DNA of 64,000 nt, from assembly GCF_030028105.1 (NCBI RefSeq), contig NC_092378.1, positions 100,863,731 through 100,927,730 of the forward strand. The letters run 5' to 3'. Position numbers and translations under genes: made by a program. The DNA comes from Mobula birostris. Its lineage: Eukaryota. Shown piece after piece: positions 12,286 to 63,605 of the stretch (positions are counted from its first letter, which is position 1; each line of letters starts with the position of its first letter). Under the pieces are notes generated by a model. It was not told the origin of the DNA and did not search any database. It was given only the letters and a program-made list of their open reading frames with translations.

Positions 12286-12291
12286 AATAAA
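12286..12291 (+). promoter_or_regulatory. Candidate COG7 polyadenylation signal AATAAA
   Basis: First canonical AATAAA noticed downstream of the stop; an ATTAAA also occurs at 11031. No transcript evidence. Confidence 0.2.
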
Positions 12292-30584: not shown

Positions 30585-30669
30585 CTGAAAGTTAAATTGA
30601 GAAACAAGCTCAGACACTAGTATTGTAAGTTTTCCAGAACAAATATCATATTTCCTATTTTAATGCCAT

Positions 30670-33200: not shown

Positions 33201-33269
33201 CAGGTAATCATAGGACCATGTCCTCTCACCTCATTCATAGAGCAAACCCATGTTTTTTTTTCTTGAGAC

Positions 33270-34041: not shown

Positions 34042-34099
34042 CTCTGAGGATTCCGATGGCCAATCTGCCATAGAGATGGTCAGTCTATATTGGGTCTCA
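34042..34099 (-). CDS. SCNN1B: SCNN1B exon 10 (58 nt)
   Basis: ccctacag|T...GAG|gtaggc; encodes (N)ETQYRLTISMADWPSESSE. Confidence 0.96.
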
Positions 34100-34204
34100 C
34101 TGTAGGGAAAGAAGTTGGTGAGTTGGATTACTTCAAAGACTGTCTCTGACTTAAGACACTTTCTTATGCTTTTCTTCTTGGTCTTCTCTACTCCTCTCAG
34201 AGTT

Positions 34205-37800: not shown

Positions 37801-38989
37801 CCAGGATGCAGGTTGCCTTATGTGGGGATTGTCAGTTGTTGTACCATGAAAGCTGAGAGCTGAAGTGCTGGAGGAGCTATATGCCTGTCATCTAGGCATG
37901 ATCAAAATGAAAGCATTGGCTCGAAGCTTTGTCTGATGTCCTGGGACAGATCAGCAGATCGAACAGCTTGCCGCGTACTGTTCAGAATGCCAAGAGCAGC
38001 ACCTCTCCATCCCTGGGAATGGCCTGCATTGCCCTGGCAGAGGATTCATGTAGATTTTGCCAGACCTATCATGGGCACAAATTTCTTGGTAGTAATGGAT
38101 GCAGCGACAAAGTGGCCAGAAGTGGTCTCAATTGCCTTGTCTACATCCTTAAACACTGCTGATGCATTGAGAAGACTCTTCTCAAGAACTGGTGTTCCAC
38201 AGTTTTGTGGAACAGTTTCAGGCATTCCTGAAAATGAATGGACTAGGACATACTACATTTGCACCGTACCACCACAACTGGTAGAATGGCCTGGTAGAAA
38301 GGTTTGTCCAGTGTTTAAAGAACACACTGTGAGCAACATCAGCAGAACACACTACACTGTCACTGAATCAGAAGCTCACCAGTTTCTTCCTTGCATATTG
38401 CACTGCAGCACACTCCACAACCAACAACTCAACAGCTATGTTGTTCCTAGGTCATCCTTTGTGTTCACACTTGGATCTCCTCAAACACAATCTTAGATGG
38501 AGTATGCCGCACAAACAGCTGAGACAAATTGAGGGATCCTCAAACAGGGAGGTTTGATGTTTCACTTCTGGACAAGCATTCCTGGTGAGGGATTACAGAG
38601 GTGATCAAACGTGGGTTCTTGGAAAGATTAACGACAGAGCTAGACCACTCTCCTACACAGTGGAGATTGTGTCTGATATCATCTGGAGACAACACCTTGA
38701 TCAGCTGAGGAGAGCACAGTCAATTGTTAGAGAAGAATGATGTCCAGAGCAGTCAGAACCAGTTCCTGCAGTCCCAGAATCAACTCCTTCAACCACCTTG
38801 GAGGAGGCTACAAGTCTTTCCTGCCAAGCAGATTGATTTCTTCCCCCCCCACCCCCCACGTCAAGAAAGATGTTATCCCACAAGAGTAAGAAGTCCTCCA
38901 CAGCAATTAAATCCTTAGGCCAGAATGGGAAAATTAAAACTTACTCTGTTGTGGATGTCAATAAAGTAGTTGTATCATATCATATACTC

Positions 38990-39069
<80 letters not shown>

Positions 39070-39306
39070 TACTAGAGAGCAGAAGGTTACATTTTTGAGT
39101 TGAGATGCTTTCTGTATTCAGTTGGAATTTATAGCTAAGCAGGGAGGTGTGTAGTGTATTCAATATTTCAGTATATTGTTTGATTAAGCATTCTTTGTTT
39201 ACTTACATAATTCATTATGGGTTATATGTAAAAGTACGCAAATGGCATATGTCATTATGCTCCTGTGTTTTTATTTTGATTGGTTTATGAAGCTACAAAC
39301 ATAACA
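34888..39306 (+). mobile_element. Gypsy/Ty3 LTR retrotransposon, full-span but decayed, antisense in SCNN1B intron 9
   Basis: 5' LTR 34888-35120 and 3' LTR 39150-39306 (both tgtagtgtatt...cataaca). PBS-like gtggtgatgagg at 35121, PPT aagcagggagg before the 3' LTR, flanks ccatt/ccagt. Gag CCHC CYHCGRGLHSPNQC, protease MEMDIG, RT ICGDFK and YLDD, RNase H LACDTSPYG, integrase WQRIHVDFA, in Gypsy order. Confidence 0.93.
38990..39069. repeat. Compound microsatellite (TG)n(TA)n(CA)n
   Basis: Read directly; lies in the Gypsy 3' non-coding region. Confidence 0.95.
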
Positions 39307-40739: not shown

Positions 40740-40818
40740 TTGCAGGGTTGCTTGCATATCTCCAGGCATTTGGAATTCTCCACCTCAATCTGCTCTCTCA
40801 GAGTGTAATAGCAGTAAC
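40740..40818 (-). CDS. SCNN1B: SCNN1B exon 9 (79 nt)
   Basis: ttcaccag|GT...TGCAA|gtgagt; encodes (G)YCYYTLREQIEVENSKCLEICKQPC(N), thumb-domain cysteines. Phases match both neighbours. Confidence 0.94.
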
Positions 40819-41250
40819 CTGGTGAAAGTAACACAGTAGAAGTTGAACTCGACAGCATAAGGAGGTCATTTACCCCCAAGTCAGCAAATTGCACTGCAAA
40901 TTAGAATGTAAATTGCCTTACACCATATCTCTTGATTGCTTTTTCAATCTTTATCTAACTTCCCTTCAAGGGAAATGGACCATAACCTATGAATACAGTG
41001 TGAACAGTCCCTTTCTCCTTTCTATTACAAGCCATACGTAGAATCCTGAGCTTATCCCTCATTTATATGCAAACAATTTTCATTCACGTAATATAAGGAC
41101 ATTGCAAACCAGTTTAACAGAGTGTCTGGATCCATTTTACCTACAAGAAAATGGATCTGAAGGTAGTAAATGGTAACATATACATACTTCGATAATAAAT
41201 TTATTTTGAACCTCTGATGGGACCTTGTCTATTTAATATACTATGTTCTT

Positions 41251-41654
41251 TTTTTATTTATATACACACATTCTTTTTCTCTCTCTCCCTTTTCTCCGTC
41301 TGTCCCTCTCACTATACCCCTTGCCCATCCTCTGGGTTTTCCCCCCTCCCCCCTTTCTTTCTCCCTAGGCCTCCTGTCCCATGATCCTCTCGTATCCCTT
41401 TTGCCAATCAACTGTCCAGCTCTTGGCTCTATCCCTCCCCCTCCTGTCTTCTCCTATCATTTTGGATCTCCCCCTCCCCCTCCCACTTTCAAATCTCTTA
41501 CTAACTCTTCTTTCAGTTAGTCCTGATGAAGGGTCTCGGCCTGAAACGTCAACTGTACCTCTTCCTAGAGATGCTGCCTGGCCTGCTGTGTTCACCAGCA
41601 ACTTTTATGTGTGTTGCTTGAAATTCCAGCATCTGCAGATTTCCTTGTGTTTGC
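41251..41654 (+). mobile_element. Young PLE 3' end with hammerhead motif
   Basis: TSD atactatgttctt at 41238-41250 and 41655-41667; closely matches the reverse complement of 58011-58410. Confidence 0.9.
41519..41555 (+). ncRNA. Minimal type-I hammerhead ribozyme motif (core intact, stem I mismatch)
   Basis: AGUC CUGAUGA AGGGUCUCGGCCU GAAA CG UC AACU; the base after the cleavage site is A rather than G. Confidence 0.65.
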
Positions 41655-42883
41655 ATACTATGTTCTTCAGCAGGATTCTTTAGTTTAACACACTCTGTTT
41701 TTATATGGCCTTTATCTCCAGACCTATGTTCTGAATGTGTTTTGCTTGCTTTGTTCCTTTATATTAAAATATTTTAATTTGAAATTTCACCATTATTTCC
41801 CCAATTGCAGGATGAAATCCATTCCTTGAGGTGTCCAGTAAAATGCCACTTATGAGCCAGCTGGGCTTGTCTCCCAGAGATACCAGGGCTTGAACATAAC
41901 CTGCACTGAAGGGCAGACTGATGGCCCAGTGTTTGGACCAGTGTGTGGTCCAGGAGCAGTCTGACTAGGAGCCCTGACTTGGAGGAACCATGACTGGCTG
42001 AGTTCCTTATGCTCTCTGCTTGCCCCTGTGCCCCATTGGCATGGGGCCAGAATAGAATCAGAACTTATGGAGCAGCTCCTTCAACACTCAAAATGGGGCT
42101 ACAACCTCACATTCTGTAACTCCATAGGACATTGACGGTCCAGGCAGTAGAAATGACTGGCAGCCTCTGAACCAGCACACATCCACATTATAAAGTAGGG
42201 GAATCAATCGCACAAAAATTCTCCTGTTGCTAGATGGCAGAACAGATTTCCATATTGAATTCAGATGCAAGTTTGGGGTGAGGAAGAATGGAAGAGCAGC
42301 CTATCCAGAAATCCCTTCTGTAGGGTACGGAATGACACAGAGGACGTTTCCCAGAGAGGAGATAATGTATGGTACCAGGTTCTGTGGTGGCTTTCAGCTC
42401 TTGGATCTGATGAGCATCTTGGGCCCAGTAGAGGTCAACTCACACAGCATGCAAACAGACCCGTCAGATCATTGAGTCTGCACTAACCATCAATTACCCA
42501 CTTATCTCATGTGAAACCCTTTGCTAATTGTCTCCACATTGCCACCAACTCCCCCTAGATTCCAGTACACGCCACAGACACACATTTTCTTCCTCTCTCA
42601 CAAACACAGTCAGTCTCTCTCTCTCTCTCCCCCCCTTCTCTCTCTCTCACTTCTCATACACATAAACAGCTTCTCTCTCCTCTCTCCTCCCCCCACACAC
42701 AGTCTCTCTCTCCCCCTTCCCCTCTGACACACAATATAGTCAGTTTCTCTCTCTCTATCCCCTTCCCTTGTCCCCACATGCGAGAGAACTTTACAGTGGC
42801 CTGTTAACCTACCAACTCACCCCTTTGATTTTTTAGTCTCAGTAATACTATTCGGTAGGTTTAATACGTACTCTAAATTCTGT

Positions 42884-43393
42884 CACAAACAAGAGAAATC
42901 TGCAGATGCTGGAAATCCAAACAACACACACAAAATGCTGGAGGGACTCAGCTGGTCATGTACATTTATGGAAAAGAGTACAGTCAACATTTTGGGCCAA
43001 GACCTTTTATCAGTTCATCTGGTAATTGCCCCTCCTCCTTCACCATTCCCCATTCCCATTTCCCTTGCTCAGCTTACCTCCTTACTTACCCATTGCCTCC
43101 CTCTGGTGCTGCTCCCCTTTCTTCCATGGCCTTCTGTCCTCTCCTATCAGACGCCCTTCTCCAGCCCTGTATCTCTTTCAACAATCAACTACCAGCTCTT
43201 TACTTTATGCCTCCGGTTTCACCATCACCTGAGACCTTGCACTTCCTCCTCCCCTTACGTCACCTTCTTACTCTGACTTCTCATCATTTTTCACCAGTCC
43301 CGATGAAGGGTCTTGGCCCGAGCGTTGACTGTTTACTCTTTTTCATAAATGCTGCCTGGCCTGCTGAGTTCCTCCAGCATTTTGTGTGTGTTG
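42884..43393. mobile_element. Inverted-pLTR PLE insertion
   Basis: TSD ctctaaattctgt at 42871-42883 and 43394-43406. Left arm (-) carries the tail extension; right arm (+) has cccgatgaagggtcttggcccgagcgttgactg. Confidence 0.88.
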
Positions 43394-45679
43394 CTCTAAA
43401 TTCTGTGATGGGGCAATGCCTGCTAAATAACCACCTGTATTCCGTGATAGGTGCCAGCTGTGATGGGGCAATGCCTGCTAAATAACCACCTGTATTCCGT
43501 GATAGGTGTAATAGGACCCAGCATCCACCATTCCTGATGGGATTAGTAATCTCTGTCATTTGTCTGGGAAACTTTTCAGTTTAAAACACACCCAATAATT
43601 TCGATAGCACCTTGTACAGTTTACAAATGCTCTCAATTCAGTGGGTTTAGTACAGTCTGTAAATTCCAGGATGCAACCTTTAATCATGTTTTCCATCCCC
43701 GTCAAATCAATAAACCCTACACTTTATGTTGGCCTTCCTCAATTTAATAAGATCAGTATAACTGGAACTTCAATAGTTTGATAAACTCTATAATTCGTTA
43801 TAGAAGTACATCAGTTTCACACCTGCTTCATTTGGTGCTTGAGCTGCAGCGGGGCTGAAGAGCTATGCTGTATGACTCTCTGACTGTTCTAAAATCTCTT
43901 TAGTATTCTGTGACGGTACCAGCAATAAATTTCTTCAAATGTAGGATAAGACCTGTCCGTTTAATACACTCTGTGTAATAAATTTAAGATCTTGACAGTT
44001 TATTGAAGTGTCTGTAATCTACTTGGGGGGGGGGGAGGGGTCTAGTCATTTTAGTGCCATACTCTGCATTCAGTAATGTGACCCAATACACTGCTAATGT
44101 GATTCAGTAACAGAACAAATGATTTAATACATCCCGGCTGGGGCACTGTCGGTTTAATACCCTATTCGTATTTGATAACTGGACTATATTTTTAATACAC
44201 TTTCTAAATGTTGCGATGGGACACTGTTTAATTCAATATCAATATTGATAGCCATCGAGTCATACAATGTGGGGGAAGACTCGTGTCCATGTAGCCACCA
44301 ATGACCTAATCGCAGTTTTCAGCTCTCAGATGGATCACTGTCACATTAATACACTCTCCGCAACTTGTATTGGAAACCGGTCATCAATATGATGATCCCT
44401 GCTGTGACCCTGCCAATTGAAAATACTTGCTACAGTTCATGCTCAAAGCCTTGCGTTCAATATATAATCTGTAATCTTTAATGGTACTCTGTTAATCCAA
44501 TATGTGTGATACAGAGCTGACAATATAAGGCCTTCCTTGTATTGTCAAAGTTACCAAATCAGAGTCATATGCTCGAAGTCATTTGCCCTTCAGCCGACTG
44601 TGTAGCAGCTATCAATCACCCATTTCTCATGCTCGAATCGTAGTTTCTTCTGTTTCAATGCACGATGTGTTTGTTAAATTGCATGTTGTGTCTTTGAGAG
44701 TTTCATGCATTTTCTACAATTGTAAGGCATTCTCTCATTTTAGTACACTTTCCATTGTCTGCGACAGGACCTACAGTTAGTTTGTTTAACTACTACAGGG
44801 TATTGAATTACCAATTTAATAAGCTATCTATATTTCATAATAGGATGCTGCCACTTTAATATGCTGTCAGCAATCTGTGACGGATTTCTTTCAGTCTATT
44901 ACGCACTCCATAATTGGGTCTGCAATTCTTGTTGGGTCCCTGTTACTTCAATAGACTGACTAGAGCCATTGGAAGAAACGTCTCAGTCTAATAAATACTC
45001 TACAAATGGTGATAGTAACTTAATATACTCGTTATGATACACGACGGGGCCTTGTGTTTATTAGGCCCTGCAATCCGAGTTGGAGAACTATCGATTAATT
45101 ACAATCTAAATAATCCTTGATGGAAATCTGTCAAGGTAATGCGCTCTCCTCAACCCCCTTTAATGCCCTCCCTATTATTTCTGGCAGGACCCGAACAATT
45201 GAAACCACTCGCTGTGATCTTGATGGAATTCTTTCCCTTAATCAGTTACCATACCTTGTCAGTGTAACACACTCACTGTACAGTAATACATAACAGGACC
45301 CTGTCAATCTATTACACTTCTACAATCATGAAATGAGTCCGTTTCATTTATACAGAGTACAAATAACCCTATTAATTTTTATTTGTGATGGGTCTCTGGC
45401 AAGTTAAAATGCTCCCCATATTACGTTATAGGATCCTGCCATTGATGTACAATCCGTATGAGATCCCTAAGCCATATAGTCTCTATAATTCACGACAGAA
45501 CTGTGCCATTTTATTACATATTTCATACAGGTCCTGGCCAATGTAATGCACTCTCTATAAACTATAATAGAAAGCTAAGAATTTAATACACTCACTATGA
45601 TGAACATCATAGCCTATCAGTTGAACATACTAATTACAAACCTTAAAGAAATGCTCTTGGTTTACACCCATCTCCACGA

Positions 45680-45851
45680 TGCTCAAAGGTCCAGGACACC
45701 TTCAAGCAGCGATGCCTCGAAAAGGTGGCATCCATCATTAAGGACCCCCATCACCCAGGACAGGCTTCTGTATCTGTGCCAACCATCAAACATTAAAACT
45801 ACCTCAACATCTCACGACGTATGCCGGTGACATTAAACCTGATTCTGATTC
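45680..45851 (+). mobile_element. Rex1/Babar-like LINE 3' fragment
   Basis: gcatccatcattaaggacccccatcacccagg...taaacctgattctgattc tail. Confidence 0.55.
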
Positions 45852-46364
45852 CGGTGTCTTAGTCAGTTTAATCCGTGATCAATAATTGTCAATTTATCAC
45901 ACTACCTCCAATCCCTGACCAATTTAATACACGCCATATAATCCGTGATGGAACGCTGCTAATATAACACACTTGGTAATTCACAATGCTACAATAATAC
46001 CCATAATGGAAACCTGTTAATTAAAATGCCCGCTATAATCCGTATCAAGATTGTCATTAAACACTTCTCATTTGATTCAGTGAAGTGGCTGCAAATTATT
46101 ACCCTCTTCTTGACTTTGACATCTCAATCTCAATCTGTGATGGCATCAATAGGCTCACTTGCTGTATAAAGAAATACATCACAATTCGGCCCTCTGTATC
46201 TGTACAAACCATCAAACAGTCACTTACACTCATACAACATCAAAATCTCATCTTATTCTCACAATATTCCTGTCAACACCCCCTAAATTCTACCACTGTT
46301 ACAGTGAGCAGTTAACCTTCCAACCTGCACATCTTTGGGATTAGAAGAAAATCCCCTGCAGTCA

Positions 46365-47150
46365 TGTCACAGAATCACACAGCATGGAATCGATCCCTTG
46401 GCCCATCTCATTCGTCCATGCCCATTGTGTTGCCCAGTGAACTAGTGTCTCCCACCTGCCCACGTTTGGCCTAGAGCTCTCTAAACCTCTCCCATCCAGT
46501 CCATCTAAATGTTTTTTAAATGTTGCTAATGTTTCTGCCCCAAACACTATTTCTAGTAGCTCTTTCCAAATATGTACCACACTTTGCTTGAAGAAGTTGC
46601 CCCTGAAGTCCCTTTTAAATCTCTCACCTCTGTTCTTAAACGTTGGCCCTCTTGTTTTTAGTACCCCCTCCTTAGGAAAAAGTGTATGTGCTTTCACCCT
46701 GCACATCCCCCCCACCCCCATGATCTTATTTACCTCTGTCAGGTCACCCCTACATTTCTATGTTGCAGGGAATAAAGTCTTAGTTCATGCACCCCCCCCC
46801 CGAAGTAATTTAGACCCCAAGTCTGCATTTTCTGCATTCTGTCTCGCACTTTTTCCTACATAAGGGCGGCCAAAACTGTGCACAATACTCTAAGTGTGAC
46901 CTCAACAACATCATATATAACTGCAACATAACATTCCAACTCCTATCCTCACTGATAGAGGCCAGTGTGCCAAGTATCAGCTTCAGCTCTTCACCATTTT
47001 TACCTTTGACGCTGCTTTCAGTGAACACTTGCACTCCTAAGTCCCTCCTCTCATCACATTCGCCAGAGCCCTACTATTTAACAAATAGTCCTACTGTGGA
47101 TTGATCTCCCAAAATGCAGTACCTCACATTTCTCTAGATTGAAAACCATG
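46365..47150 (-). mobile_element. CR1 3' fragment
   Basis: LRSHLEYCAQFWPP; FKRDFRGNFFKQSVVHIWKEL. Confidence 0.85.
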
Positions 47151-47159
47151 TGCTAATCT

Positions 47160-48990
47160 TCAGGACTGTGGTGCTCAAATCAGGTGACCCTGACCCTTAG
47201 AAGAAATCAAGATCAAGCAGTTATCAGGGATGCCAGGAGACAATACCAGACCAAAATCAAGACCCAGACCAGCTGTGAGTTGTACCAGGTTCACATGCTA
47301 TTACAGGCTGCAAAATAAAATTGGGCAGCATCCCAAGTAACAGCACATTCCTTCACATTGAAAGTAATGCATTCTCTGGAATGTTACCACCCACCCTGAG
47401 ACCCTCCATTGTACTTGAACCCACAGCCACTGTTGTGGACGTAAGAGCAGAGAGTGAACCCATGGAAACCTTCTGGCCCAGAAGGCATCCCTGTCCGCAT
47501 CCTTAAATCCTGTTCAGGACATGAGCTGGAGGGTATTCGCAAACATTTTCAATTTCTCCCTGCTTCAGTTTGAGGTTCCTACCTCAAAATAAGCAGGGAG
47601 AGATTAGGAATACCACAATCATTGCAATCCCTCGGAAAAACAAGGGAAAGTGCCTTAATGACTACCACTTGGTAGCTCTGATGTTCACCAATGTGATGTG
47701 CTTCAAGAGGCTGGCCAGAGCACTCATTAACTCCAGCCTCACAGATAATCTCATCCCACTGAAATGCACCTACTGCCAAAACAGGTCCATGGCAAACCGC
47801 AGCTCCCTACACTTCTCTCTGGAGCACCTGGGTAGTGGACACTCACATCAGACTATTGCCTACTGACTACAGCTCTGCCTTCAGTACTATAATTTCAAAC
47901 AAACTCATCTTCAGACTCTTACACCTGGGACTCAGTGCCTCTCTTTTCAGATGGATCCTTGATTTCCTGACCACTGTCAGTAAAGACCGGCAGCAATAGC
48001 TCTGCCATCATTATTTTCAGCACTAGTTCCATGACTGAGTCTTAGCCCCTATTCTACTCCCTATACACTCACGACTGAGCGGCTGCGTTCTGCTCTACAG
48101 GTTTGCAGATGATACCACCATAGTGGGCCGTATCTCACAAAATGATGTGTCAGATTACAGGAAGGAGATGGAGAGCCCAGTGATGTAGTGTTGTATCAAC
48201 AACCTTTCCCTCAACATCAGCAAAACAAAAAAACTGGTCATTGACTTTCAGAGAGTGGGGCAGTGAGCATGTTCCTTCTTACATCAATAATGCTGAGGTC
48301 GACAGGGTTGAGATCAAGTTCTGAGGTGTTAACATCATGAACAGAATGTCATGGTCCATTCTCACACAGATGCCACAGCCAGAAAAGCTCACTAGCTCCT
48401 CTGCTTCCACAGAAGGCTAAATGAATTTGGCATGTCTCCATCAACCCTCAACAATTTTTATTGATGCACCATAGAAAACATTCCATTCAGACGCATCATT
48501 GCCAGGTATGGCAATTGCTCTGCCGATAACTGTAACAAACTGCAGAGAGTTGTAGACAGAGTTCAGCACCCCATGGAAACCAGACTCCACTCCCTGTACT
48601 CTGTCTATCCTTCTCATTGCCTTGGTAAAGCATCAAGTATAATCAAAGACCCCACCCACCCGACCATTCTCTCTCCTTCCTTTACCCCACTGTGTAGAAC
48701 ATGCAAAAGCCTGAAAGCACATAACACCAGCCTCATGTGACAACTTGTAGCCCACGATTATAAGACTATTGAATGTTCCCCTAGCATGATAAAATGGATT
48801 TTGACCTCATAATCTACCTTCTTGTGATCCTGAACATTATCGTCTACCTGTACTGCACTATCTCTGCAAGACTTTATTCTGCATTCTGTTATAGTTTTAA
48901 TTTGAACTACCCCAATGCGTTGTTGTAATGAATTTATCTGTAGGAATAATAAGCAAAACAAGTTTTTCACTGAACATGTGATAATAATAA
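47160..48990 (+). mobile_element. Rex1/Babar-clade LINE, decayed
   Basis: TTIIAIPRK..KCLNDYHLVAL...[37 protein letters not shown]. Confidence 0.8.
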
Positions 48991-49029
48991 ACCCAGTTAC
49001 ACATATAGCCCTCCACATGATGTGCAATA

Positions 49030-49460
49030 CTACTTGTTTTAGTATCATCTGCAAACCTACTAACTATGCCTTATACATTCACATCTAAATAATGTATATA
49101 CATTACAAACAACAAAGGTCCTAGCATTGCCCCGTGTGAAACACACTAGACATAAGCCTCCAGACTGAGAAACAACCCTGGACCAGCACCCTCTGCTTCC
49201 TGCTACTGAGCCAATTATGAATCCTATCGACTGACTCCCCCTGGATGTCATGCAATCCGACCTTCCAGGCTAGTCTACCATGAGAGTCCTTATCAAAGAC
49301 AACATCCACTACTCTACCCTCATCTAGCCTCTTGGTAACCTCCTCAAAGAACTCAAAAAGATTTGTCAGACATGATTTCCCTCACACAGAACATGCTATC
49401 TCAAATAAGAACTTGTCTCTGCAAATGGTAGGAGATTCTGTCCCTCAGAATGCTCAGCAG
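49030..49460 (-). mobile_element. CR1 RT fragment
   Basis: VDVVFDKDSHGRLAWKV.LHDIQGE...NWLSSRKQRV. Confidence 0.75.
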
Positions 49461-50334
49461 CAATTAAACCCCCTCCCATCACAGAGAGAATGCACGAGCT
49501 CCAGACAGAGAGAGGCTGGGATTGAACCCAAGTCCCTAGCACTGTCAGGCAAGTTCTCCACCAGCTGGGCCACTGTGCCGATCCTTACTGGGTCAATTGA
49601 ATAGCATAATCATTGATGGAACTGTTTTCGGATTAATCTTTAAAATATATGACGGAATTCTCTCTTTACAATCTATATCAGAAGACTGTCAATTTAACAG
49701 ACTGATGGAAAATTGTCAGTTTAATATAATATTTGTAATTTGCGATGGGACCCTGTCAAATAAATGAGCTCTGTGCAATCTGCATTGGAAATCTAATAAT
49801 TAAGAGCTCAGTATAATTCGTGATTGATCTTAGTCCAATTGAATACATTTGCAATAATTCTTTTATTTCACCGATTGTATTAAACCAGTGTTCAATCACC
49901 AACTGCGGATAGTGTGTGGTACAGAAGTTGGTTCACTTGATTCACATGACAGGTCGAATCATTATACAGCAGTCAATTGAATGCACTTGCTATAATCCTT
50001 GAAGGATCCCTCTTTGTATTCAGTGATGGAAACCTGTCAATATAATATCCCTTGAATAATACCATTTGAATACTTTTCAACTTAATAGTCTCTTAACGAT
50101 CATTGATGGACCCTTGTTGGTTTAACACACACTAAGTTTACAGTGGAACACAGTAAAAAATGATGCATTCTTTACAACGTGCTTGAAAACTGTTAATTTA
50201 ATTTTGTACACTTTCAACTTTGGTAATGAGTCCCTTACGATTTAATACACTGTGCACAATCCACAATGAGTCACTGGCAATTTAATTCTCCACTGTCTCC
50301 AGCTTAATACCCTCCCTAAAAACACAAGGGTAGC

Positions 50335-52950
50335 TGCTGAATGTTCTGGGGTTTAGATGTTTCAAAAGGGACACCAAGGGAGGTAAAAGAGGTGGGGGTG
50401 GGGAGTTGTATTGCTAATCAAGGACAGTATCACATAAGACCATAAGACAACATATAAGACAAGACCATAAGACAAAGGAGCAGAAGTCAGCCATTCGGCC
50501 CATCGAGTCTGCTCCACCATTTTATCATGAGCTGATCCATTCTCCCATTTAGTCCCACTCCCCCGCATTCTCACCATAACCTTTGATGCCCAGGCTACTC
50601 AGATACCTATCAATCTCTGCCTTAAATACACCCAATGACTTGGCCTCCACTGCCGCCCATGGCAACAAATTCCATAGATTCACCACCCTCTGGCTAAAAA
50701 AATATAACCATAAGATTACAGCTATAAAAAGGGAGAATGTTGTGGAGGGATTGTCTATTGAGTCAGTGAGGGTGGACGTCAGAAACAGGAAGGGAACAAT
50801 CACTCTACCGAGAGTATTCTGTAGACCAACCTCCCACCACACCCCAAACTGCAACAGCGACACTGAGGAGCAGATCATGGGGCAGATTATGGAAAGGTAC
50901 AGAAAATAGGGTTGATGTCATGGGGGACTTCAATTTCCCCAATATTGAATGGCATCTCCTTCGTGCAAAAGGTTTAGATGGGGGCAGAATTGGTTAGGAA
51001 CAATAGTTGACAAGAGATGTGGAACATCTAGTCAAGAGGAGGAAAGAAGCTTACTATAAGGTTGAGGAAGCAAGGATCCGACAGGGTTCCTGAGAGTTGT
51101 AAGATAGCCAGGAAGGAGCTGAAGAATGGACAGGAGAGCTAGAGGAGGCATGTGAAGGCCTTGGCAAGTAGGATTGAGTAAAACCTCAAGGCGTTCTACA
51201 TGATCGTAACAAACAGGAGGAGTAGACTGATCATGTAGAGTAGAGTAAACATGCCTGGAGTTGGAGGAGGTAGTGAAGATCCTTAAGTGAATACTTTGCT
51301 TCAGTATTGACCAGTGATAGGGACTATGACCACTCCAAGTACAGCGTAAAACAGGCTGATGAAGCTAGAACCTGCCAATGTTAAGAAAGATGTGCTGGAA
51401 CTTTTGGAAACTTCAGGTTATATAAGTCCCTGGGTCTAGAAGGGTATATTCAAACTTACTACGGGAAGCAAGGAAAGAGATTGCTGCACCTTTGGTGATG
51501 ATCTTTGCATCCTCACTGTCCACAGCAGTAGTACCAGATGTACCAGGGTGGAAAATATGATTCCTTTGTTCAAGAAAGACAGTAGGGTTATCCCTGGGAA
51601 TTATAAACCAGTGAGTCTTACTTCAGTGGTGGGCAAATTATTGGAGAAGATTTTTACAGACTGGATATACGAACATTTGAAGAAGCATAGTCAGATTAGG
51701 AATAGTCAGCATGGCTTTGTGAGGGACATGTCATGCCTCATGAGCCCGAGTGAATTCTTTGAGGATGTGACAAAGAACATTGAGGAAGGTAAAGCAGTGA
51801 ATGTGAAGTATATGGACTTTAGAAAGGTGTTTGATAAGTTCCCCATGGTGGGCTCATTGAGAAAGTCAGGAGCCACGGATCCAGGGAAACTTGGCTGTAT
51901 GGATATGGAATTGACCTGCCCACAGAAGGCAGAGGGTGGTAGTAGATAGAGAGTATGCTATCTGGATGTTGATGACCATTGGTGTTTCAAAAAGATCTGT
52001 TCTGGGACCCCTGCTTTCTGTGATTTTTATAAATGAATTGGATGAGGAAGTGGTAGGGTTAGTAAGTTTGCTGATGACATGAAGGATGGAGGAGTCGTGG
52101 ATGGTGTGAGAGTCAATGTAGATTGCAACAGGACATTAACAAGATGCAAAGCTGGGTTGTAAACAGGCAGATGGAATTCAACCCAGCAATGAGTGAAGTG
52201 ATTCATTTTAGAAGGTTGAATTTGAAGGCAGAGTACAGGGTTAATGGCAGGATTCCTGACAGTGTGGAGGAAGGGAAGGATCTTGATGTCCATGTCCATA
52301 AAACCTTCAGCGTTGCTGCACAAGATGAGAAGGCTGTTAAGAAGGTGCGTTGGTCATCATTAGTCAAGGGATTGAGGTCAAGGCAGTTAGGTAATGTTGC
52401 AGCTCTATAAAACTGTGGTTAGACCACATTTGCAAGACTGTACTCACTTCTGGTCACCTTATTATAGGAAGGATGTGGAAGCTTTAGACAGGGTGCAGGG
52501 AAGATATACCAGCATGCTTCTTGGACTCAAAGTCATGTCTTATGAAGGTGGGTTGAGCAAACTAAGGCTTTTCTCTTTGGGGTGAAGGAGGATGAGAGGT
52601 GACTTGATAGATGTATACAAGATGATCAAATGAATAGCCAGAGATTTTTTACCAAAGGTGGAAATGGCTAATATCAGGGGGCATAATTTTAAGGTGATTG
52701 ATGGAAAGTACAGAAGGGATGTCAGCGGTAAGTTCTTTACAAAGACAGTGGTGGGTGTGTGGAACGCCCTGCCGGGGGTGATGGTACAGGCAGATGCATT
52801 TGGCCATTTGAGAAACTCTTAGATAGGCACATGGATGACAGAAAAATGGAGGGCTATGTAAGAGGGAAGGTTGATCTTAGAGTAGGTCAAGAGGTTGGCA
52901 GAACATTGTGGACCAAAAGGCCTGTATTGTGCTGTAATTTCTATGTTCTA
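50335..52950 (+). mobile_element. CR1 LINE (APE to tail, decayed) with a nested inverted CR1 3' end at ~50433-50703
   Basis: GGGVVLLIKDSIT|AIKRENVVEGLSIESVRVDVRNRKG, GDFNFP, NYKPVSLTSVVGK, FADD, tail ttctatgttcta. The nested piece has a (cataagac)n tail. Confidence 0.88.
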
Positions 52951-54995
52951 ATCCATGACAGAATCTAGTCAGTTAAGTAATTCCACTGCATATCAGAGGG
53001 GTCATTGTCAATTTAAAATACCATCCAAAATTAGTCAGGGAGCCTTGTCAACTGTGATAGGTAACTGAATTACTGCCCTCTCCTTGAATTCCATACACCC
53101 TCTTAATCCGTGTTGGCATCTTGTCAAGTTCTTGCTCTCCCTACAGTCTGTATTAGAAGCCTCTCAATGGGCTTACTGTAATCCTACCCACCACTCAGTC
53201 ATTTCAAAACATCTTCTGCAATCTGTGATAGGATGCTGTCGATATAGCACACTCAATGACTGTAACCAGTCAATGTACCACATGCACTGCTCTCTGCAAT
53301 CTGTGATGGAACTGTGTCAATGGAGTACATTCAGTACAATCCATATGAATTCAGTATGGACCAAGAGATCTAGCTGTTGTACAATACCCCATTTGCAGTG
53401 GGTGAAGGAACTCTGCTACTTAATACACCTCTCTACAATTGATGATGGTACTATGTTAGTTTAAAATGCACACTGCTGTATGTCAGCAATCAGGGTGGTT
53501 CCCTGTCTGTGCACTTATTTAAATCCTGCTAAGATGATAACCTCTACAATCTCTGATGAAAATGTGCAAACTAATTGCACTTTCTCAATCCATGATGCAT
53601 TAAATCAATATATTCTCTACAGTCTGTATCGGAAACCTGTCAATTAACACATTCACAAAGTAGACCTTGTCAGCTGGATATCATTAATGGAACCTTCTCA
53701 GGTTAATACATTCTCTGCAGTCCAGTAAGTACATGGAGCGCAGTTTGTGATCAAATAACGTGGGGTTAAAACACTGTACTCCACAGCAGGCCTCTGTTAA
53801 TTCAATACTTCTCCCTCTTCATGCTGGTGCACTGTCTGGTGAGTGCAGTCTACATATTCCCTATTGGAAGTAGGTCAATTTATTAGGTGTGCTTTTATCT
53901 TTTCATCAATACATTGTCAAAAATGTGTGACAGAACATCAGCTTAATGTATTCTTTGCAATTGCAATTTGTCTTGGTAAATGTAATACAGTCTGAATAAT
54001 TAGTGATGAGATGCACTGCAGTTAATACAGTGTCAACGGCCTGCATTGGAAACTGGTGGATTCACTAACTATAATCTTCAACGTAATATGCAGTCCGCGA
54101 TGGCGTGATGGAACTCTGTCACGTTAACGTTCTGACAATAATTCAGATTGGAATCCACTACTACAAACTGAAATGCAGCTCTTCTTAATACACTAGCAAT
54201 AATTCCTTGTCATTTTAATACACTTCACATTCCATATTGAAAGCTTGTTAATTAACACAATCATTATAATCTGTGATGTGACCCTGCGAATTGAAGAAAC
54301 TCTACAAATAAAGAACAGCAGGACACGGGAAAAACTCAGTGGGTCAAGCAGCATCTGTGGATGCCTGACATTCTGAGTTCCTCCAGAGTTCTGGTTTTGT
54401 TCTAGGTTCCAGAAAATACAGCCTCTTTTGTTTCTGAGATGGGATAGTGACATTTTAATACATTCTGCACTTGCAGCAATGGGCTTCTGCCAATTAAGTA
54501 CACTTTCTACATTCATTGCTAGCACCCTGTCAGTGAAATGTCTCTCCATAATTCAATAGGGGTCCCCGTCTAGTTAACGTAGTCTTCATAATTCAGTTAG
54601 GAAAGTTGTAAATTTAATAATAGCATTATAATCAATGACAGGACTCTTGTTATTTTAATACACATCGTGCAAGTCCTAATTGTCCCTGTAAGACACTCTC
54701 TGCAATCCATTATGGGACTCTGTCCAGTGAATATATTTTCCAGAGTCCCAATAGTAAACTTTTTAATTCACTACAATGTGTGAGGGCTCTGTCAATTGGA
54801 TGCACTATTTACCATTCTAGATGAAATTATCCTGATGTAAAATTGACAGTCTGTGGTGGAAACTTATCGGTTTATTACTGGGACTACAATCTGTAAAGAC
54901 CTCCTATCAAATTACTGTACAGTCCACTGTCCATGATGGAATCCAATTGGATTAATTCACCCTCCATAATCCTTATAGAAACATATACAAGGATT

Positions 54996-55303
54996 GGGGT
55001 GGCACAACGGCATAGTGGCTGGCACAATGGTTTACAGTGCCAGTGACCGGTGTTCAATTCCTGCCATCGCCTGTAAGGAGTTTGTACGTTCTCCCTGTGA
55101 CAACGTGGGTTTCCTCCGGGTGCTCTGGTTTCCTCCCACAGTCCGAAGACAGACCGGTTGCTAGGTTAATTGGTCAATATAAATTATCTCGTGATTAGGT
55201 TAGGATTAAAAAAAAAAAAATCATCAGGTGATTGCTGGGTGGAATGGCTCGAAGGGCAGGAAGGGTCTATTCTGTGTTGTATCTGAATAATAAATAAATA
55301 AAT
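54996..55303 (+). mobile_element. Full-length HE1-type V-SINE
   Basis: A box (tggcacaacggcatagtgg), B box (gttcaattcc), V-domain, (taaa)n tail. Confidence 0.88.
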
Positions 55304-56709
55304 AGAACAATACTATTATATTAACTATAATGTATTATGAAACCCAATCAATGTATTACAATCACTACAAATCCTTGATGAAAATCTGCTAATTTACTAC
55401 CTTTCATACATCAAAAGCTTATTTTCAGGGTATTTATAGCTGGATATTTATGTGCATAATAATGAACTTGAACATTGCTAATAAAATGTGAGCAGCCCCT
55501 GTCAATTTATAGAGTTATGTATCATCCATGATATGCCCCTTTCAATTTAGCACACACTCTACTGCTAGTGATGGATCCCTGCCAAATGAATACACTTATA
55601 TCCACCCTGTCGATTGAATCTTTGACTCGACTGACCGGGTTTAAGACACTGTTTACAATCCCAGATGGAAACCTGTCAATTTAATATATTCTCCACAATC
55701 CATGGCAGATCCAATTTACTGCACCCTTGATGGAACACCATCAACGTGATGCATTGTCTACCATCCCTGATGGAATCCTGTTGGTTTAATACACATTGAA
55801 CAATGCATGAAGACTCCCTTTCAAATAAATGTGTTAATGCATGCCTACCAACACACTCTGCACTCTGTTTGTATTGGAGACTTGCTCTAATGGATAGTGG
55901 AAGTCTCTCAATTTAATAACCTGACCATATTTCATTACAGTACCCTGTCAATTCATCAGCATCTTTGATGGAATACTACCAATTTGCTATACTGTTTACA
56001 ATCTGTGGTTCAATGCATTCTAATCAGTCCTTGATGGAACACTGACAACTTGATACACTATCTCCAGTCAGTGATGGTAATCTACTGGTTTGATACACTC
56101 TGCAACTTTGATCTACCAATTGATACACCATCAGCAATCCCTGAATGCACTAACTACCATCCTGCATGGAAGTTTTTTGGTTTAGTACACTCTCTACAAT
56201 CCACAAGTCAATCCAACCCTGTGTAATCAAAGTACCATCTGTTATCCGGGATGGAGTAATATAGGTTCAAAACATTCTCTGCAAACGTGGATAGGTTTGT
56301 CCGATTATATACAGTTTCTGTTATCCTAGGTACCCTCTGAATTTAATATCTGTGATAGGACCTTGTCTAATGACTGCACTCTTTGCGTTCAGTTCTGTGA
56401 TAGGACTCTGTCGGCCCCTGCATCCTCTGACATTTTAATGAAGATCAAAAACGGTAGATGATGCAAATACAGCACTGTCTAAAATCCATGATAGAACACT
56501 GCCAAGTAACGTTCTTTGAAATCCATGAATGCATTCACAACATTTGATGGAACCCATTTGTTTACAATCGGTGTCAATATTAGTATACTACCCTGCCAAT
56601 TCTGTTTCCTCTCCATTACTCCTGATGGAATCCTTTTACCTTACAATGGTACATAGGACCTAACCAACTTTATGCCCTGTTCACAAATCATATTGGAATT
56701 TGCTATGAT

Positions 56710-57245
56710 CCTGCAGTTGTCTGTAAGGAGTTTGTACATTCTCCACATGACTCTGAGGGTTTACTCCAGGTACTTCAGTTTTCCACCCTTAGTCCAAAGA
56801 TACACCGGTCGGTAGGTTAATTGGGCATTGTAAATTGTCCCATGATTAGGCTAGGGTTGCCAAGTGGTTAAGGTGTCGGTCTAGTAATCTGAAGGTCACT
56901 AGTTCAAGCCTGAGCTGAGACAATGTGTTGTGTCCTTGAGCAAGGCACTTAACCACACATTGCTCTGTGACGACACCGGTGCCAAGTTGTATCGGCCCTA
57001 GTGCCCTTCCCTAGAACAACATTGGTGTCGTGGAGAGGGGAGACTTGCAGCATGGGCAACTGCTGGTCTTCCATACAACCTTGCCCAGGCCTGCACCCTG
57101 GAAACCTTCCAAGGCACAAGTCCATGGTCTCACGAGACTAACGGATGCCTAATGCCTAAGGCTAGGGTTAAATCGAGGGTTGCTGAGCAGAGTGGTTTGC
57201 AGGGCGGGGAGGGCTATTCCGTGCTGTATCGCAGTAAACAAGTAA
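56710..57245 (+). mobile_element. V-SINE interrupted by a nested tRNA-derived CORE-SINE (56859-57158)
   Basis: TSD aggctagggtt at 56848-56858 and 57159-57169. The insert has gccaagtggttaagg and agttcaagcc boxes and the CORE-like tgtgtccttgagcaaggcacttaacc. Confidence 0.8.
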
Positions 57246-58010
57246 ATTAATTAACGCCCTCATTACAATACTAACATGACCCTATCAATGTACTACTCTG
57301 TCTACCATCCATGGGGTAGAGAAATGCCAATTTAATGTACTGTCTTTAATCCTTGATGGGATCATGTCACTTTACCACACCCTCTACAATCAGCAATAGA
57401 ATGCTGCGAATGTATAACTCCCTTCTACCGGTGATGGAGACCCGTGGAAGAAAAGCTCCTTCTGTACACAACAATGCAACTCTATAAGTTCAATACACTT
57501 TCTACAGTCAGTTTTGCATATTCTATGCAGAATCTGATGGGTCACTTTTGGTTGTGGCACTTTGCGCACACACTGGTCAGCAGCTAAGAGGTTAATGCCC
57601 ACTCCACTCCACAGCCTGCGTTATAAACTTGTTAATTAATACAGTCAATTGTCAATGATGGGACAAAATTAAAAACACTCACTACAATTATTGTATGGTT
57701 CTTGTTAACAGGATGAACTAACAAGTGGTCCTCACGGAATGCTGTGATGAGACGCTGTCAATTAACTTCATTACAGTATTTGCAATCTATAATGAGCAGT
57801 TCATTACAATCTCTGCTGTGCCATTGCATTTCACACAACACACTCTTTACAGAGGGTGACTGAAGCCTGCCAATTTAATAGGCCTGAATTCTGTCAATTT
57901 TGCCCACTCACAGTTAATGGGTAAGTCCACACCATCAGTTGAATGTGCCTTTTCTAATCCGTAGACATGCTCTCTATAATTCGTCAAGTAAATCACCACA
58001 TTGGAAACCT

Positions 58011-58778
58011 CAAACAACAGGAATTCTGCAGATGCTGGAAATTCAAGCAACACACATCAAAGTTGCTGGTGAACGCAGCAGGCCAGGCAGCATCTGTAGG
58101 AAGAGGTGCAGTCGACGTTTCAGGCCGAGACCCTTCGTCAGGACTAACTGAAGGAAGAGTGAGTAAGGGATTTGAAAGTTGGAGGGGGAGGGGGAGATCC
58201 AAAATGATAGGAGAAGACAGGAGGGGGAGGGATAGAGCCAAGAGCTGGACAGGTGATTGGCAAAAGGGGATACGAGAGGATCATGGGACAGGAGGTCTGG
58301 GAAGAAAGACAAGGAGGGGCAGGGGGACCCAGAGGATGGGCAAGAGGTATATTCAGAGGGACAGAGGGAGAAAAAGGAGAGTGAGAGAAAGAATGTGTGC
58401 ATAAAAATAAGTAACAGATGGGGCACGAGGGAGAGGTGGGGCCTTAGCGGAAGTTAGAGAAGTCGATGTTCATGCCATCAGGTTGGAGACTACCCAGACG
58501 GAATATAAGGTGTTGTTCCTCCAACCTGAGTGTGGCTTCATCTTTACAGTAGAGGAGGCCGTGGATAGACATGTCAGAATGGGAATGGGATGTGGAATTA
58601 AAATGTGTGGCCACTGGGAGATCCTGCTTTCTCTGGTGGACAGAGCATAGATGTTCAGCAAAGTGGTCTCCCAGTCTGCGTCGGGTCTCGTCAATATATA
58701 AAAGGCCACATCAGGAGCACCGGACGCAGTATATCACCCCAGTCGACTCACAGGTGAAGTGTTGCCTCAGCTGGAATG
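58011..58778 (-). mobile_element. Penelope-like element (Neptune-type), 5'-truncated: GIY-YIG endonuclease, 3' UTR, hammerhead, tail
   Basis: 58770->58444 translates to LRQHFTCESTGVIYCVRCS*CGLLYIDETRRRLGDHFAEH...VATHFNS...EEQHLIFRLGSLQPDGMNIDFSNFR*. TSD cattggaaacct at 57999-58010 and 58779-58790. Confidence 0.93.
58109..58146 (-). ncRNA. Minimal type-I hammerhead ribozyme, intact consensus
   Basis: U-AGUC CUGACGA AGGGUCUCGGCCU GAAA CG UC^GACU-G: stem I AGUC/GACU, core CUGAnGA and GAAA, GUC triplet, palindromic ACGU in place of stem III. Confidence 0.8.
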
Positions 58779-59429
58779 CATTGGAAACCTGATCATTAAC
58801 ACATTCTCTGTTACCCATGGCGGGGCCCAGCCAATTGAATATAAGATTTTTGATGGGACCCTCACTTTCCCTTTTCCAGTTTAAAACATATTCTACATTC
58901 TGTGACAGTATGACACCAATTTAATGCTCTCTCTAAAATCCATGATGGGATACTGCCAAGTTAATACATTTCCAACGACCAAATTGTGATGGGGTCTTCT
59001 CAATGTAATGCCATATATATTATTCAAGATAAACCTTCTGGGTTTAATATTTCTCTACAATTTACCAATTTAATATTTGAAGAAGGAGCCTCAATTTGAC
59101 ACAGTCGACAGTCTGTAATGGAATACAGTCATCTCAAAGCACTGTCTACAATGGTGATACATAGGGAATCTTGGTCAGTTTAAAGGCTGTGTACGATTTG
59201 TAGTGGGTCACGGGCAATGTATTCATTTCCATTGCCCTTGATGGAACTCTGCTTTTAAAATATTCAGTATAATCTCTCGTGAAATTCACTCTAAATTTGT
59301 GATTGAACGTTGCCAATTTAGTCCACCATATGCACACAGTCGACTTAACACACACTCCATAATTCATGAAGGAACCCAGCCGAGTTAACATAAACTTAAC
59401 CTGCATTGGAAACTCATTAATTCCTCCCA

Positions 59430-60620
59430 ATCTTTTTGAGTTTTTTGAGGTTACCAAGAAGGTTGATAAAGGAAAGGCAGTGGATGGACTTTAACAAGGA
59501 CTTTGACCAAGTCCCACATGGGAGGCTGATCCCGAAGGTTAAATCACTTGACATTCATGATGAAGTAGTCAATTGGATTCAACACTGGCTTAGCAAGAGA
59601 AACCAGAGAGTGGTAGTAGATGGTCGTCTCTCTGACTGGAGGTCTATGACTAGCGGTGGCCACGAGGATCGGTGCTGCATCCATTGTTGTTTGTCATCTA
59701 TATTAATGACTTAGATGATGATGTGGTAAACCAGACCAGCAAGTTTGCAGATGATGTCAAGATTGGGAGCATAATGAACAGTGAGGAAGGCTAGTAAAGC
59801 TTGCTGGGAAAATTGGCTGGAAAATGGCAGACGGAATTTAATGCAGACAAGGGTACTTTGGGAAGACAAACTTGGGTAACACACAGTGAATGGTAAGGCA
59901 TTGAGGTGTATGGTAGAGCAAAAGGATTAATGGGTCAAGTAGTTCATTCATTATGTGCCATGTCATATGATGTGGGCGATCATGGTCTTTCCATGATCAT
60001 GATTATTCTTGGCACATCACAGGTAGATAGGATCACAAAGGCAGCTTTTGGCACGTTGGCCTTCATAAGTCAGGGCACTGAGTTACAGGGGTTGGGATGT
60101 TATGTTGAAGTTGTGTAAGACATAGATGAGGCCAAATTTGGAGTATTGTGTAGTTTGGAGTACCTACATGAAAGATATCAATAAGCATGAAAGAATGCAG
60201 AGAAAACTTACAAGAATGTTGCTGGAACTTGAGGACCGGAGTGATAGGGAAAAATTGAATAGATTTGGACTTTATTCATGGGATTCAATGAGGTGAGATC
60301 TTATAGAAGTATACAAAATTATGAGAGGTCGAGATAGATTGAATGCTTGCAGGCTTTCCCCCTCAGGTTGGCTGAGACCAGTAGAAGTCAAAGGTTTAGG
60401 CTGAAAGGTAAAATATTTAAGGGAAATCTGAGGGTGGTGTGAGCGTGGAACGAGCTGCCAGCAGAAGAGGTAGATGTCATTTCAATTGTAACATTTAAGA
60501 GATGCCTGGGTAGGTAAATGGATGAGAGAGGTATGGTGCAAGTATATGGAACTAGGCCAAAGACCAGACTGGCAAGGTCTATCTGAGGCAAAGAGCCTGT
60601 TTCTGTGCTGTAGTACTCCA
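59430..60620 (+). mobile_element. CR1 RT/3' fragment, decayed
   Basis: MDFNKDFDQVPHGRL, FADD, AAFGTLAFISQG. Confidence 0.85.
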
Positions 60621-61204
60621 TGCCTTTATAATCTGAAATGGAATCTTGCCAGTTTAATATGCTCACCAAATCTGTTAATGGGTTTTGTCAACTTGATATA
60701 CTTTCTACAATTGGTAACAAAACCCATCAGTTAAATAAATTCTCTGACTGTCAGCTTATATACACTCAAATATTTGTGATGGAATTGTACCAGATTAATG
60801 AGCTCTCTTTCATCACTGATGTAATTCTGACAGTTTGACACATTCTTCCTACTGTGTAAAAACTTAGATTAGTACACATTACAATCTCGTTAATCCCTAA
60901 TCAAATTTTGTCAATTTAACACACACCTTATATCTGTGATGGAATCCCACCAGTTCAATAAATACCCTATAATCTATAATAAATGCAGTGTCAGTTGTAT
61001 AAACACACCTAAATATGTTTATATAAATCATCTCAGTATAAACTCTTGATAATCTGATATGGCAAACTGATAATTTGATAGGTCTCTAGACATTTAGTGC
61101 AATCTCCATAATTCATTATGGAATCTTACCAGTTTAATAATATTATTCTTAGCTCACAAACACTTCATAAACATCAATGGATGCCTTTCAATTTAACACA
61201 CACT

Positions 61205-63137
61205 CTAAAATTAGTGGGAAGTTAGAGGATTGGGAAGCTTTTAAATACCAACAAAAGGCAAGTAAAAAAGTCATAAAGAAGGAAAAGATGGAATATGAAG
61301 GTAAGCTAGCCAATTTTAAAGAGGATACAAAAAGTTTCATCAGATATATAAAAGGTAAAAGAGAGGATAGAATAGATATCAGACCACTGGAAAATTATGC
61401 TGCAGAATTAGTAATGGGGAACAAGGAAATGGTGGATGAACTAAATAAGTATTTTGCATCATACTGCACTGTGGAAGATACACGCAGCGTGCCAGAAGTT
61501 CGAAAGTGTTAGAGGGCAGAAGTGTGTGAAATTGCCTTCTTGGGAGAAGGTGCTTGGGTAACTGAAAGGTTTGAAGTTAGATAAATCACATGGACTACAT
61601 TGTCTAAACCCCAGAGTTCTGAAGGAGGTTGAAGAGATTGTGAAGGCATTGGTAATGATCTCTCAAGAATTAATGGATTTGAGCATGGTTCTGGAGGACA
61701 GGAAAATTGCAAAAGTTACTGTTCTGTTCAAGAAGGAAGAGAAGCAGAAGAGAGGAAATTATAGCCCAGTTAGTCTGACCTCAGTGGTTGGGAAGACCTC
61801 AGTCGATTGTTAAGGATGTGGTTTCGGGGTACTTGAAGGCACCTGATAAAATAGGTTGTAGTCAGCTTAGTTTCCTTAAGGGAAAATCTTGCCTGACAAA
61901 TCTGTTGGAATTCTTTGAAGAAATAACAAGTACGATGGACAAAGGAGAATTGGTGGATGTTGTGGATTTTCAGGTGTCCTTTAACAAAGTGCCACACACG
62001 AGGCTGCTTAACAAATTAAGAGCCCATGATATTACAGGAAAGATACTAGCATGGATAGAGCATTGGTTGATTGACAGGTGGCAAATAGTGGGAGTAAAGG
62101 GAGCATTTTCTGGTTGGCTGCTGGTGACTCGTGGTGTCCCAAGAGGTCTGTGCTGGGACATATTCTTTTTATGTTAAATGTAATTGATCTGGATGACAGA
62201 AAAGATGGTTATGTGGCTAAGTTTGTTGATAATTCAAAGATAGGTGGAGTGGTAGGTAGTTTTGAGGGAGCAGGGAGGCTACAGAAAAACTTAGACAGAT
62301 GAGGAGAATGGGCAAAGAAGTGGCAGATGGAATACAGTGTCAGGAAGTGTATGGTCATGCACTTCGGTAGAAGAAATAAAAGCCTAGACTATTTTCTAAC
62401 TGGAGAGAAAGTACAAAAACCTGAGGTGCAAAGGGACTTGGAGGGGGGGTCCTCGTGCAGGATTTCCTAAAAGCGAATCTGCAGGTTGAGTCAGTGATGA
62501 GGAAGATAAATGCAATGTTAGGACTCATTTTAAGAGGAGGAGAGCATAAAAGCAAGGATGTAATGTTGAAACTTTACAAAGCACTGCTGAGGCCTCACTT
62601 GGAGTACTGTGAGCAGTTTTGGGTCCCTTATCTAAGAAAGAATGTACTGACATTGGAGACCGTTCAAAGCAGGTTCACAGAAATGAAAGGCTTATCATAT
62701 GAGGAACGCTTGATGGCTCTGGGCCTGTACTCACTGGAATTCAGAAGAATGAGGGGAGATCTAATTAAAACCTACCGAATGTTGAAAGGCCTCGATAGAG
62801 TGGATGTGGAGAAGGTGTTCTCTATGGTGGGGGAGTCTAAGGTCAGAGGGCACAGCCTCAGAACAGAGGGAAATCCACTTAGAATGAAAATGAGAAATTT
62901 CTTTAGCCGGAGAGTGGTGAATCTGTAAAATTTGTTGCTACCGGCAGCTGTAGAGGCCAGATCATCGGGTATATGTAAGGCAGAGGTTGATAGATTCTTG
63001 ATTAGTCAGGGCTTGAAGGGATACAGAGAGAAGGCAGGAGATTGGGGCTGAGAGGGAAACGGATCAGCCATGATGAAGTGGTAGAGCAGACTCGATGGGC
63101 CAAATGGCCTAATTCTGCTCCTATATCTTATGGTCTA
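61205..63137 (+). mobile_element. CR1 LINE, 5'-truncated, decayed
   Basis: KISGKLEDWEAFK, SCLTNLLEFFEE, LRPHLEYCEQFW; tail ctcctatatcttatggtct. Confidence 0.9.
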
Positions 63138-63487
63138 ATAAATCCATAATGGAAACCGATTGATTTAATTCATTCATGCCAGGACTGTGTCATTTTAATG
63201 CACCGTAAACCCTGAATGAGCCAGTTTACTGCCACCCCAGCATTTCAATAGCCCATGTAGATTCTGTAAAAAGGCCTTTTCAGTGTAATATGCTGTCTTG
63301 ATTCTAGTATGTTTAATATACCCTCTGGATTCCCTGGCCAGACCTGAAGGGTCCCATACTCTCAACATTCCATAACAGTAACCTGCCTGTTTAGTACATG
63401 CTCTGGATCAGCTAACAGAGGTCTGTCAGTATATTATACTCTTTCACTTCTGTAATGGGAACTTGTCAACGTAAGACAGTGACTTAC

Positions 63488-63605
63488 CCCAACTCGGATT
63501 ATCCTGCTGGTTACAGTAGTGTGCTCCCTCAGGTAGAGGGTAAGTTTGATGCCCACATCCACAGTTCTGCACCATCTGATCCTGGAAACAGGAACGCAGG
63601 CAGGT
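63488..63605 (-). CDS. SCNN1B: SCNN1B exon 8 (118 nt); gene continues beyond the window
   Basis: ctattcccag|ACC...TGGG|gtaagt; encodes TCLRSCFQDQMVQNCGCGHQTYPLPEGAHYCNQQDNPSW(G). Not in the ORF track; found by manual translation. Confidence 0.96.

Follow-up and report, generated by a model that had tools for sequence, protein, structure and literature searches.

The window analysed here is a stretch of 64,000 nucleotides of the Mobula birostris genome (assembly GCF_030028105.1, contig NC_092378.1, positions 100,863,731 to 100,927,730 of the forward strand). Searching with the ASC family revealed that the minus strand of this region carries two ENaC-type genes. Exon 2 of the nearer gene matched human ENaC beta with an E-value of 9.6e-39 and human ENaC gamma with 2.4e-16, and because it is far closer to beta the host gene was assigned to SCNN1B. 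Coding exon 8 (63488-63605, minus strand) has an open frame and AG/GT ends, and exon 9 (40740-40818, minus strand) displays the Cys pattern. Since exons 8 (63605-63488) and 9 (40818-40740) join in phase, the intron between them (intron 8, minus strand) covers 40819-63487, i.e. 22,669 bp, with its GT donor at 63487, where an initial annotation of this DNA had placed it. The exon numbers are those of that annotation and presumably correspond to the layout of the human gene.

In intron 8, some 200 units of 40 bp are arranged head-to-tail in a tandem array. Autocorrelation of 6-mers over 41210-63480 gave the peak at lag 40 that had been set beforehand as a check (45 pairs versus a median of 8), together with a harmonic at 78, and no 40-bp peak was present in the control stretch 1-41210. 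The 2-kb windows at 44-46 kb and 54-56 kb reached lag-40 z values of 5.4 and 6.4. A matrix derived from the data by training from six seeds found 123 matches in 41210-63480, all of them plus-strand and in 33 cases spaced exactly 40 apart; on the minus strand it found 5 matches in the whole window. The extent of the array was determined with a circular profile HMM that allows indels, which assigned 7,951 bp to it, in 21 same-strand segments that span 41209 to 63484 and supply about 195 letters for each unit position, versus 0 bp in bases 1-19000, 0 bp in the reversed sequence and 53 bp in the reverse complement. Matrix and HMM returned the consensus already given in the initial annotation, whose statements on the common orientation of the units and on their phasing at 55729/55769/55809, 56033/56073 and 53297/53337 also hold. 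At least 30 matched positions were found in 178 units and at least 20 in 210, and the size, previously put at 10 kb and a few hundred units, is corrected to 8 kb and about 200 units. TRF run at score 30 returned 46 rows, none with period 40, which agrees with the earlier view that the array is too diverged for routine repeat callers. In the neighbouring gamma-type gene, the equivalent intron measures about 5.4 kb and lacks the 40-bp unit.

All array blocks lie on the plus strand. The unit nearest the acceptor is a single HMM segment (41209-41246, 76% identity), followed by a block of seven HMM segments with short gaps (43394-46043), a block of two segments (49592-50286) and the largest block (52949-57880), which consists of seven segments, is broken up by short repeats (near 54304-54432, 54993-55304 and 56709-57151), and has orthologues in four other organisms. 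Further blocks are found at 58782-59422 (by HMM), 60624-61216 (two segments) and, next to the donor, at 63141-63484. This last block keeps a 40-nt register that starts at base +1 of the intron: when the intron is cut into 40-nt pieces, the first three match the unit at 25, 21 and 25 of 40 positions. The array thus reaches the exon 8 donor as had been proposed. The proposals that it makes up most of the intron and that the intron is built from it were too far-reaching: the array accounts for 35% of intron 8 and interspersed repeats for at least 44% (10,025 bp, as detected by BLAST with the window and 490 kb of fetched genome as the database), with a remainder of 4,750 bp outside both, yet the array is the majority of the DNA between the large insertions. 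Growth of elasmobranch introns by repeat accumulation is a known pattern according to bioRxiv 2025.06.08.657570. Intron gigantism by local minisatellite expansion, as suggested in the initial annotation, stands with regard to an old local expansion from the donor but not with regard to the array as the main bulk.

About 13 kb of later insertions split the array. An interspersed repeat at 41250-41657, with 71 matches in the fetched DNA, is bounded by a 13-bp target duplication (41238 / 41655) that derives from the array unit located at 41216 by the matrix. A second interspersed repeat (42871-43403) is flanked by an 11-bp target duplication (42871 / 43394) within the unit that begins at 42844, and a Penelope-like fragment on the minus strand (57999-58790), which contains a broken GIY-YIG-like motif (57990-58790), has a 12-bp target duplication (57999 / 58779) of array sequence. 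Since the target duplications of these three insertions lie inside array units, the array came first, as the initial annotation had argued. LINE fragments with reverse transcriptase were found on the plus strand at 50455-52964 (PF00078, E 2.3e-6; 76 matches in fetched genome DNA, median 71%), 59427-60631 (E 0.0047) and 61207-63146 (E 7.2e-7), these being the 3 of 15 tested frames with a PF00078 match. The LINE fragments and the short repeats showed no target duplications beyond 6-base chance matches. Old nested repeats at 46044-49591 include a broken stretch with reverse transcriptase-like motifs, and Pfam gave no match on four frames of this stretch. Going by the initial annotation and by their motifs, the fragment at 50455-52964 would be CR1-like, the broken stretch within 46044-49591 may be Rex1 and other elements may be SINEs.

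The units differ from each other as if they had decayed singly from a common state. The 178 near-complete units have on average 66.5% identity with the consensus, and the spread among them (0.073) is close to the binomial value (0.078). Mean pairwise identity is 0.508, versus 0.509 expected for a star, and identity stays flat at about 0.51-0.52 over lags 1 to 20, neighbours being no closer than distant units; at lags 1-15 all values fell between 0.506 and 0.521, with no sign of a higher-order repeat. This star-like, distance-independent identity indicates that the units were once alike, froze about together and then mutated singly. No subfamilies were found, a single one of 780 position pairs standing out (the adjacent, CpG-like positions 3-4), and the age of the units showed no gradient along the intron, the eight donor-side units being slightly more decayed (0.59 versus 0.66-0.68). 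The sole identical pair of units is part of a 55-bp stretch duplicated recently at 43403-43508. At the worst-kept positions, 38-39, TG occurs 41 times, CA 34 times and CG 12 times among 184 units, a TG/CA excess that points to CpG decay. Ancestral variants are suspected at positions 6, 16, 32, 33 and 3-4, and the variant positions are interspersed among the units without linkage.

Neutral decay reproduces this pattern. Conservation is uneven among positions of the same base, part of this unevenness having been modelled as ancestral variants taken from these same data, and the best-kept position reaches 85%. In 179 neutral simulations all 40 unit positions were reproduced within 2.9 SD, with a simulated decay of about 0.45 substitutions per site matching the per-position pattern. 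Uniform decay across the unit, named in the initial annotation as an argument against function, is thus largely what is seen, apart from some heterogeneity. The K2P distance of the units to the consensus is 0.39-0.45, and simulations that include indels, CpG decay and ancestral variants need about 0.46 true substitutions per site to match the identity observed.

Comparison with relatives provides a measure of rate. Parts of 53000-57000 are contained in 20 public sequencing runs from nine studies; no RNA run was listed among them, from which nothing follows for expression. Four of the runs (X5, X9, X12 and X19), from four other organisms, yielded orthologous single-copy contigs that span the array, with coverage in 30, 29, 30 and 26 of 30 bins. 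The array rate was taken from long orthologous pieces of 52940-57990 (19 of 32 listed, short high-copy-repeat pieces being dropped) and the control rate from 29690-34200 of the same gene, a stretch with three small exons, using 18 of 32 listed pieces. Array and control differed at 81/4689 versus 54/3869 positions in X5 (1.73 versus 1.40%, ratio 1.24), 179/3407 versus 193/4025 in X9 (5.25 versus 4.80%, ratio 1.10), 322/4426 versus 297/4184 in X12 (7.28 versus 7.10%, ratio 1.02) and 195/2705 versus 259/4077 in X19 (7.21 versus 6.35%, ratio 1.13). The array is never slower than the control intron, none of the four differences being significant (all p > 0.17), and ratios of 1.02-1.24 argue that it is under no constraint, within the reach of a test that extends to 7% divergence and that weak or diffuse selection on the number of sites would escape. 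The initial annotation had linked neutrality to absence from relatives; the array is present in four of them, and its rate is neutral all the same. In the long array pieces, the length of each contig is within 15 bp of its span, and indels between species, among the 12 listed of 46, measure 1-15 bp and never comprise a whole unit; together with neighbours that are not homogenised, this is not the behaviour of an active VNTR.

As the array changes between species as fast as ordinary intron, it is most likely a neutral fossil. We consider it very probable that a minisatellite was born at this locus, has long gone without homogenisation, decayed neutrally and was broken up by retroelements. In the simpler reading, the repeat would have arisen where the intron begins, with the donor setting a limit to its spread; expansion may have proceeded by slippage or unequal exchange, one side being limited by the selected donor. 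The whole array would then have frozen near-simultaneously and would have accumulated about 0.45 substitutions per site, presumably with no selected function since. With the most distant relative compared being 7.3% divergent (about 0.038 for each lineage), the freeze would be about 12 times older than the deepest compared split. The split of two mobulid species is given as roughly 20 million years in bioRxiv 2026.10.27.761883; if the relatives compared here split within about 20 million years, this calibration would place the freeze at some 200 million years ago or more.

The start of the array at the donor also bears on where the unit came from. It may have begun as a duplicated exon 8/intron 8 junction, forming an array of pseudo-donors that later decayed, an origin we regard as possible but unlikely and which concerns origin only, being compatible with neutral decay. 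This origin is favoured by the register, which holds from base +1 of the intron, and by a GT that the sense consensus has one base away from the real donor, but the end of the exon fits the unit matrix no better than 14% of random positions (p 0.14), local alignment of the unit to the exon equals that of shuffles (p 0.41), although age could have erased a likeness, and donor-like words in the array are neither enriched nor depleted (11 versus 13.3 +/- 3.6). As the exon end is not significantly unit-like, a junction-derived unit is possible and no more. The same exact start at the donor counts against the view that the array is left over from a dispersed satellite family or arrived as a tandem tract within a transposon, which we hold to be very improbable even though short satellite arrays are known in euchromatin (PMC5615363). 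Young copies or a second array were not found in the genome by patterns, BLAST, flanks or random samples. BLAST of 341 bp of the array against the genome returned the self-match only. A 26-base degenerate pattern with one mismatch proved too strict, finding no match even in the array; two 26-base patterns with up to three mismatches gave, over 4.0 Gb, 3 matches in the array, 2 elsewhere and 3 for controls, the 2 outside being isolated and without neighbouring units. These pattern searches recover about 1% of units this old, and the assignment to a single euchromatic locus holds at a sensitivity that small old arrays elsewhere could escape. Over 184 kb of window and flanks the matches were confined to intron 8 except for four isolated ones, no second array was found in the 120 kb of flanks, and 370 kb of random genome contained 2 weak matches versus 102 in the intron.

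A functional reading starts from the consensus, which holds TGACAG, a hexamer we take to be a Meis/TALE site, beside TAAT. Homotypic clusters of transcription-factor sites occur in tandem repeats, and the array resembles them in this combination. It might accordingly have been kept as a diffuse, low-affinity TALE (Meis/Pbx) and homeodomain cluster, a candidate intronic enhancer of SCNN1B or SCNN1G. We find this very improbable, and equally so its strongest form, in which the array froze about 200 million years ago or earlier, is ray-wide and retains a weakly selected TALE/homeodomain core, i.e. an ENaC-locus enhancer made from a dead minisatellite. The Meis and TAAT positions are better kept than base-matched ones by 0.036-0.038, the best of 40 rotations, an excess reached by 12 of 179 neutral simulations, and the transversion deficit at these positions was matched by just 3 of 179; moreover, 24 plus-strand hexamers lie in the intron versus 13 in the remaining 40.8 kb of the window. 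The excess and the deficit amount to a weak hint, because the motif was selected after the consensus was known and because positions 8, 9, 28 and 39, maybe unmodelled ancestral variants, raise the background of transversions. Unlike in a selected cluster, there is no conserved core and intact sites are as frequent as expected from independent decay: the hexamer in 17 of 169 units (18.6 expected; 18 versus 18.4 +/- 4.3 in neutral simulations), TAAT in 54 of 182 (59.3 expected) and the 13-mer in 1 of 147 (1.7 expected). The earlier statement that TGACAG lies next to TAAT is hence true of the consensus but not of each unit. Changes between species do not avoid the motif (10 of 37 at motif positions versus 25.3% expected, p 0.85, counted among 40 of 515 rows, 3 of which lie outside matched positions), and the rate of the array is not reduced. 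RNA folding of 321 nt of the sense strand gave a z of -0.07 and Rfam 0 matches. Retention as a binding-site cluster, proposed in the initial annotation, or as structured RNA is unsupported. Poly(A)-signal-like words showed no bias in the array. Among 35 sliding hexamers an excess was seen for two, both at unit positions 1-7; this is also the site of the CpG-like pair and of seed anchoring.

The preferred reading, a decayed local minisatellite, has close counterparts. Intronic minisatellites and VNTRs with units of 10-100 bp are described in euchromatin (PMC5615363), and the array resembles them in its head-to-tail 40-bp units, its single intronic locus and its unlinked variant positions. It differs in that it is no longer homogenised or variable, has fallen to 67% identity to the consensus, is invisible to TRF, is fixed site for site in four relatives and is split by insertions. 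A 37-bp VNTR in intron 7 of human F7 has a first element that straddles the boundary of exon and intron (PMC1557585); it and the present array are alike in unit length and in starting at the 5' splice site and running into the intron, the first element here touching the donor, whereas the F7 repeat has few near-identical units and the present array about 200 decayed ones without detectable exon sequence or a preserved donor.

The array is new as a locus and ordinary in kind, a fossil minisatellite that TRF does not see; no description of it was found in a literature search that was thin on subscription journals and did not extend to bioRxiv supplements. Some apparently unique intron DNA of sharks and rays may accordingly be dead tandem repeat missed by TRF. 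About 200 replicates of one ancestral 40-mer constitute a record of long-term, context-dependent mutation, and, should distant rays share the array, it would serve as a phylogenetic marker. The array offers no evidence for new regulation of ENaC, and greater import would follow only if the core were selected or bound.

Hidden periodicity was flagged in 6 of 37 random 10-kb stretches, a sample too small to estimate how common such fossils are; one of the six is a clear young 75-bp array and the other flags are single and weak, near the false-positive level (2 in 270 windows). The 40-bp unit shows no kinship to nearby 45-bp and 32-bp arrays (p 0.74 and 0.60). The young 45-bp array, of about 92 copies, lies in another intron of SCNN1B and points to an array-forming process at work in this gene.

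Read in the transcribed direction (minus strand, window 41209-63484), the consensus of the 40-bp unit contains ATTAAA, a variant poly(A) signal. Intact copies of this hexamer on the minus strand of the same interval numbered 37, compared with 31.4 +/- 4.8 under neutral decay, and the surviving number thus matches the neutral-decay expectation. A recent, perfect tandem duplication of 55 bp was also observed within the old array at window 43403-43508.

Several further repeats were found in and around SCNN1B. An upstream intron of the gene carries a young 45-bp tandem array of ~92 copies with 91-96% matches, which spans L002:6355-10000 and L003:1-487; sequence comparison of the 45-bp and 40-bp units revealed no relationship between the two. 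Intron 9 harbors what we take to be a decayed LTR-retrotransposon-like element (window ~34900-39250), called by eye on gag/pol motifs, and a long TA/AC microsatellite lies close to its end. Downstream of SCNN1B, a GC-rich 32-bp minisatellite occupies window 19987-20587 (18.8 copies, 87% matches). Elsewhere in the genome, a 75-bp tandem array was detected in one of 37 random 10-kb stretches (L048:1001-3500). SCNN1B is adjoined on the same strand by a second ENaC-type gene, which is gamma-like (contig G000:C11, 100939921-100979921 in contig numbering).
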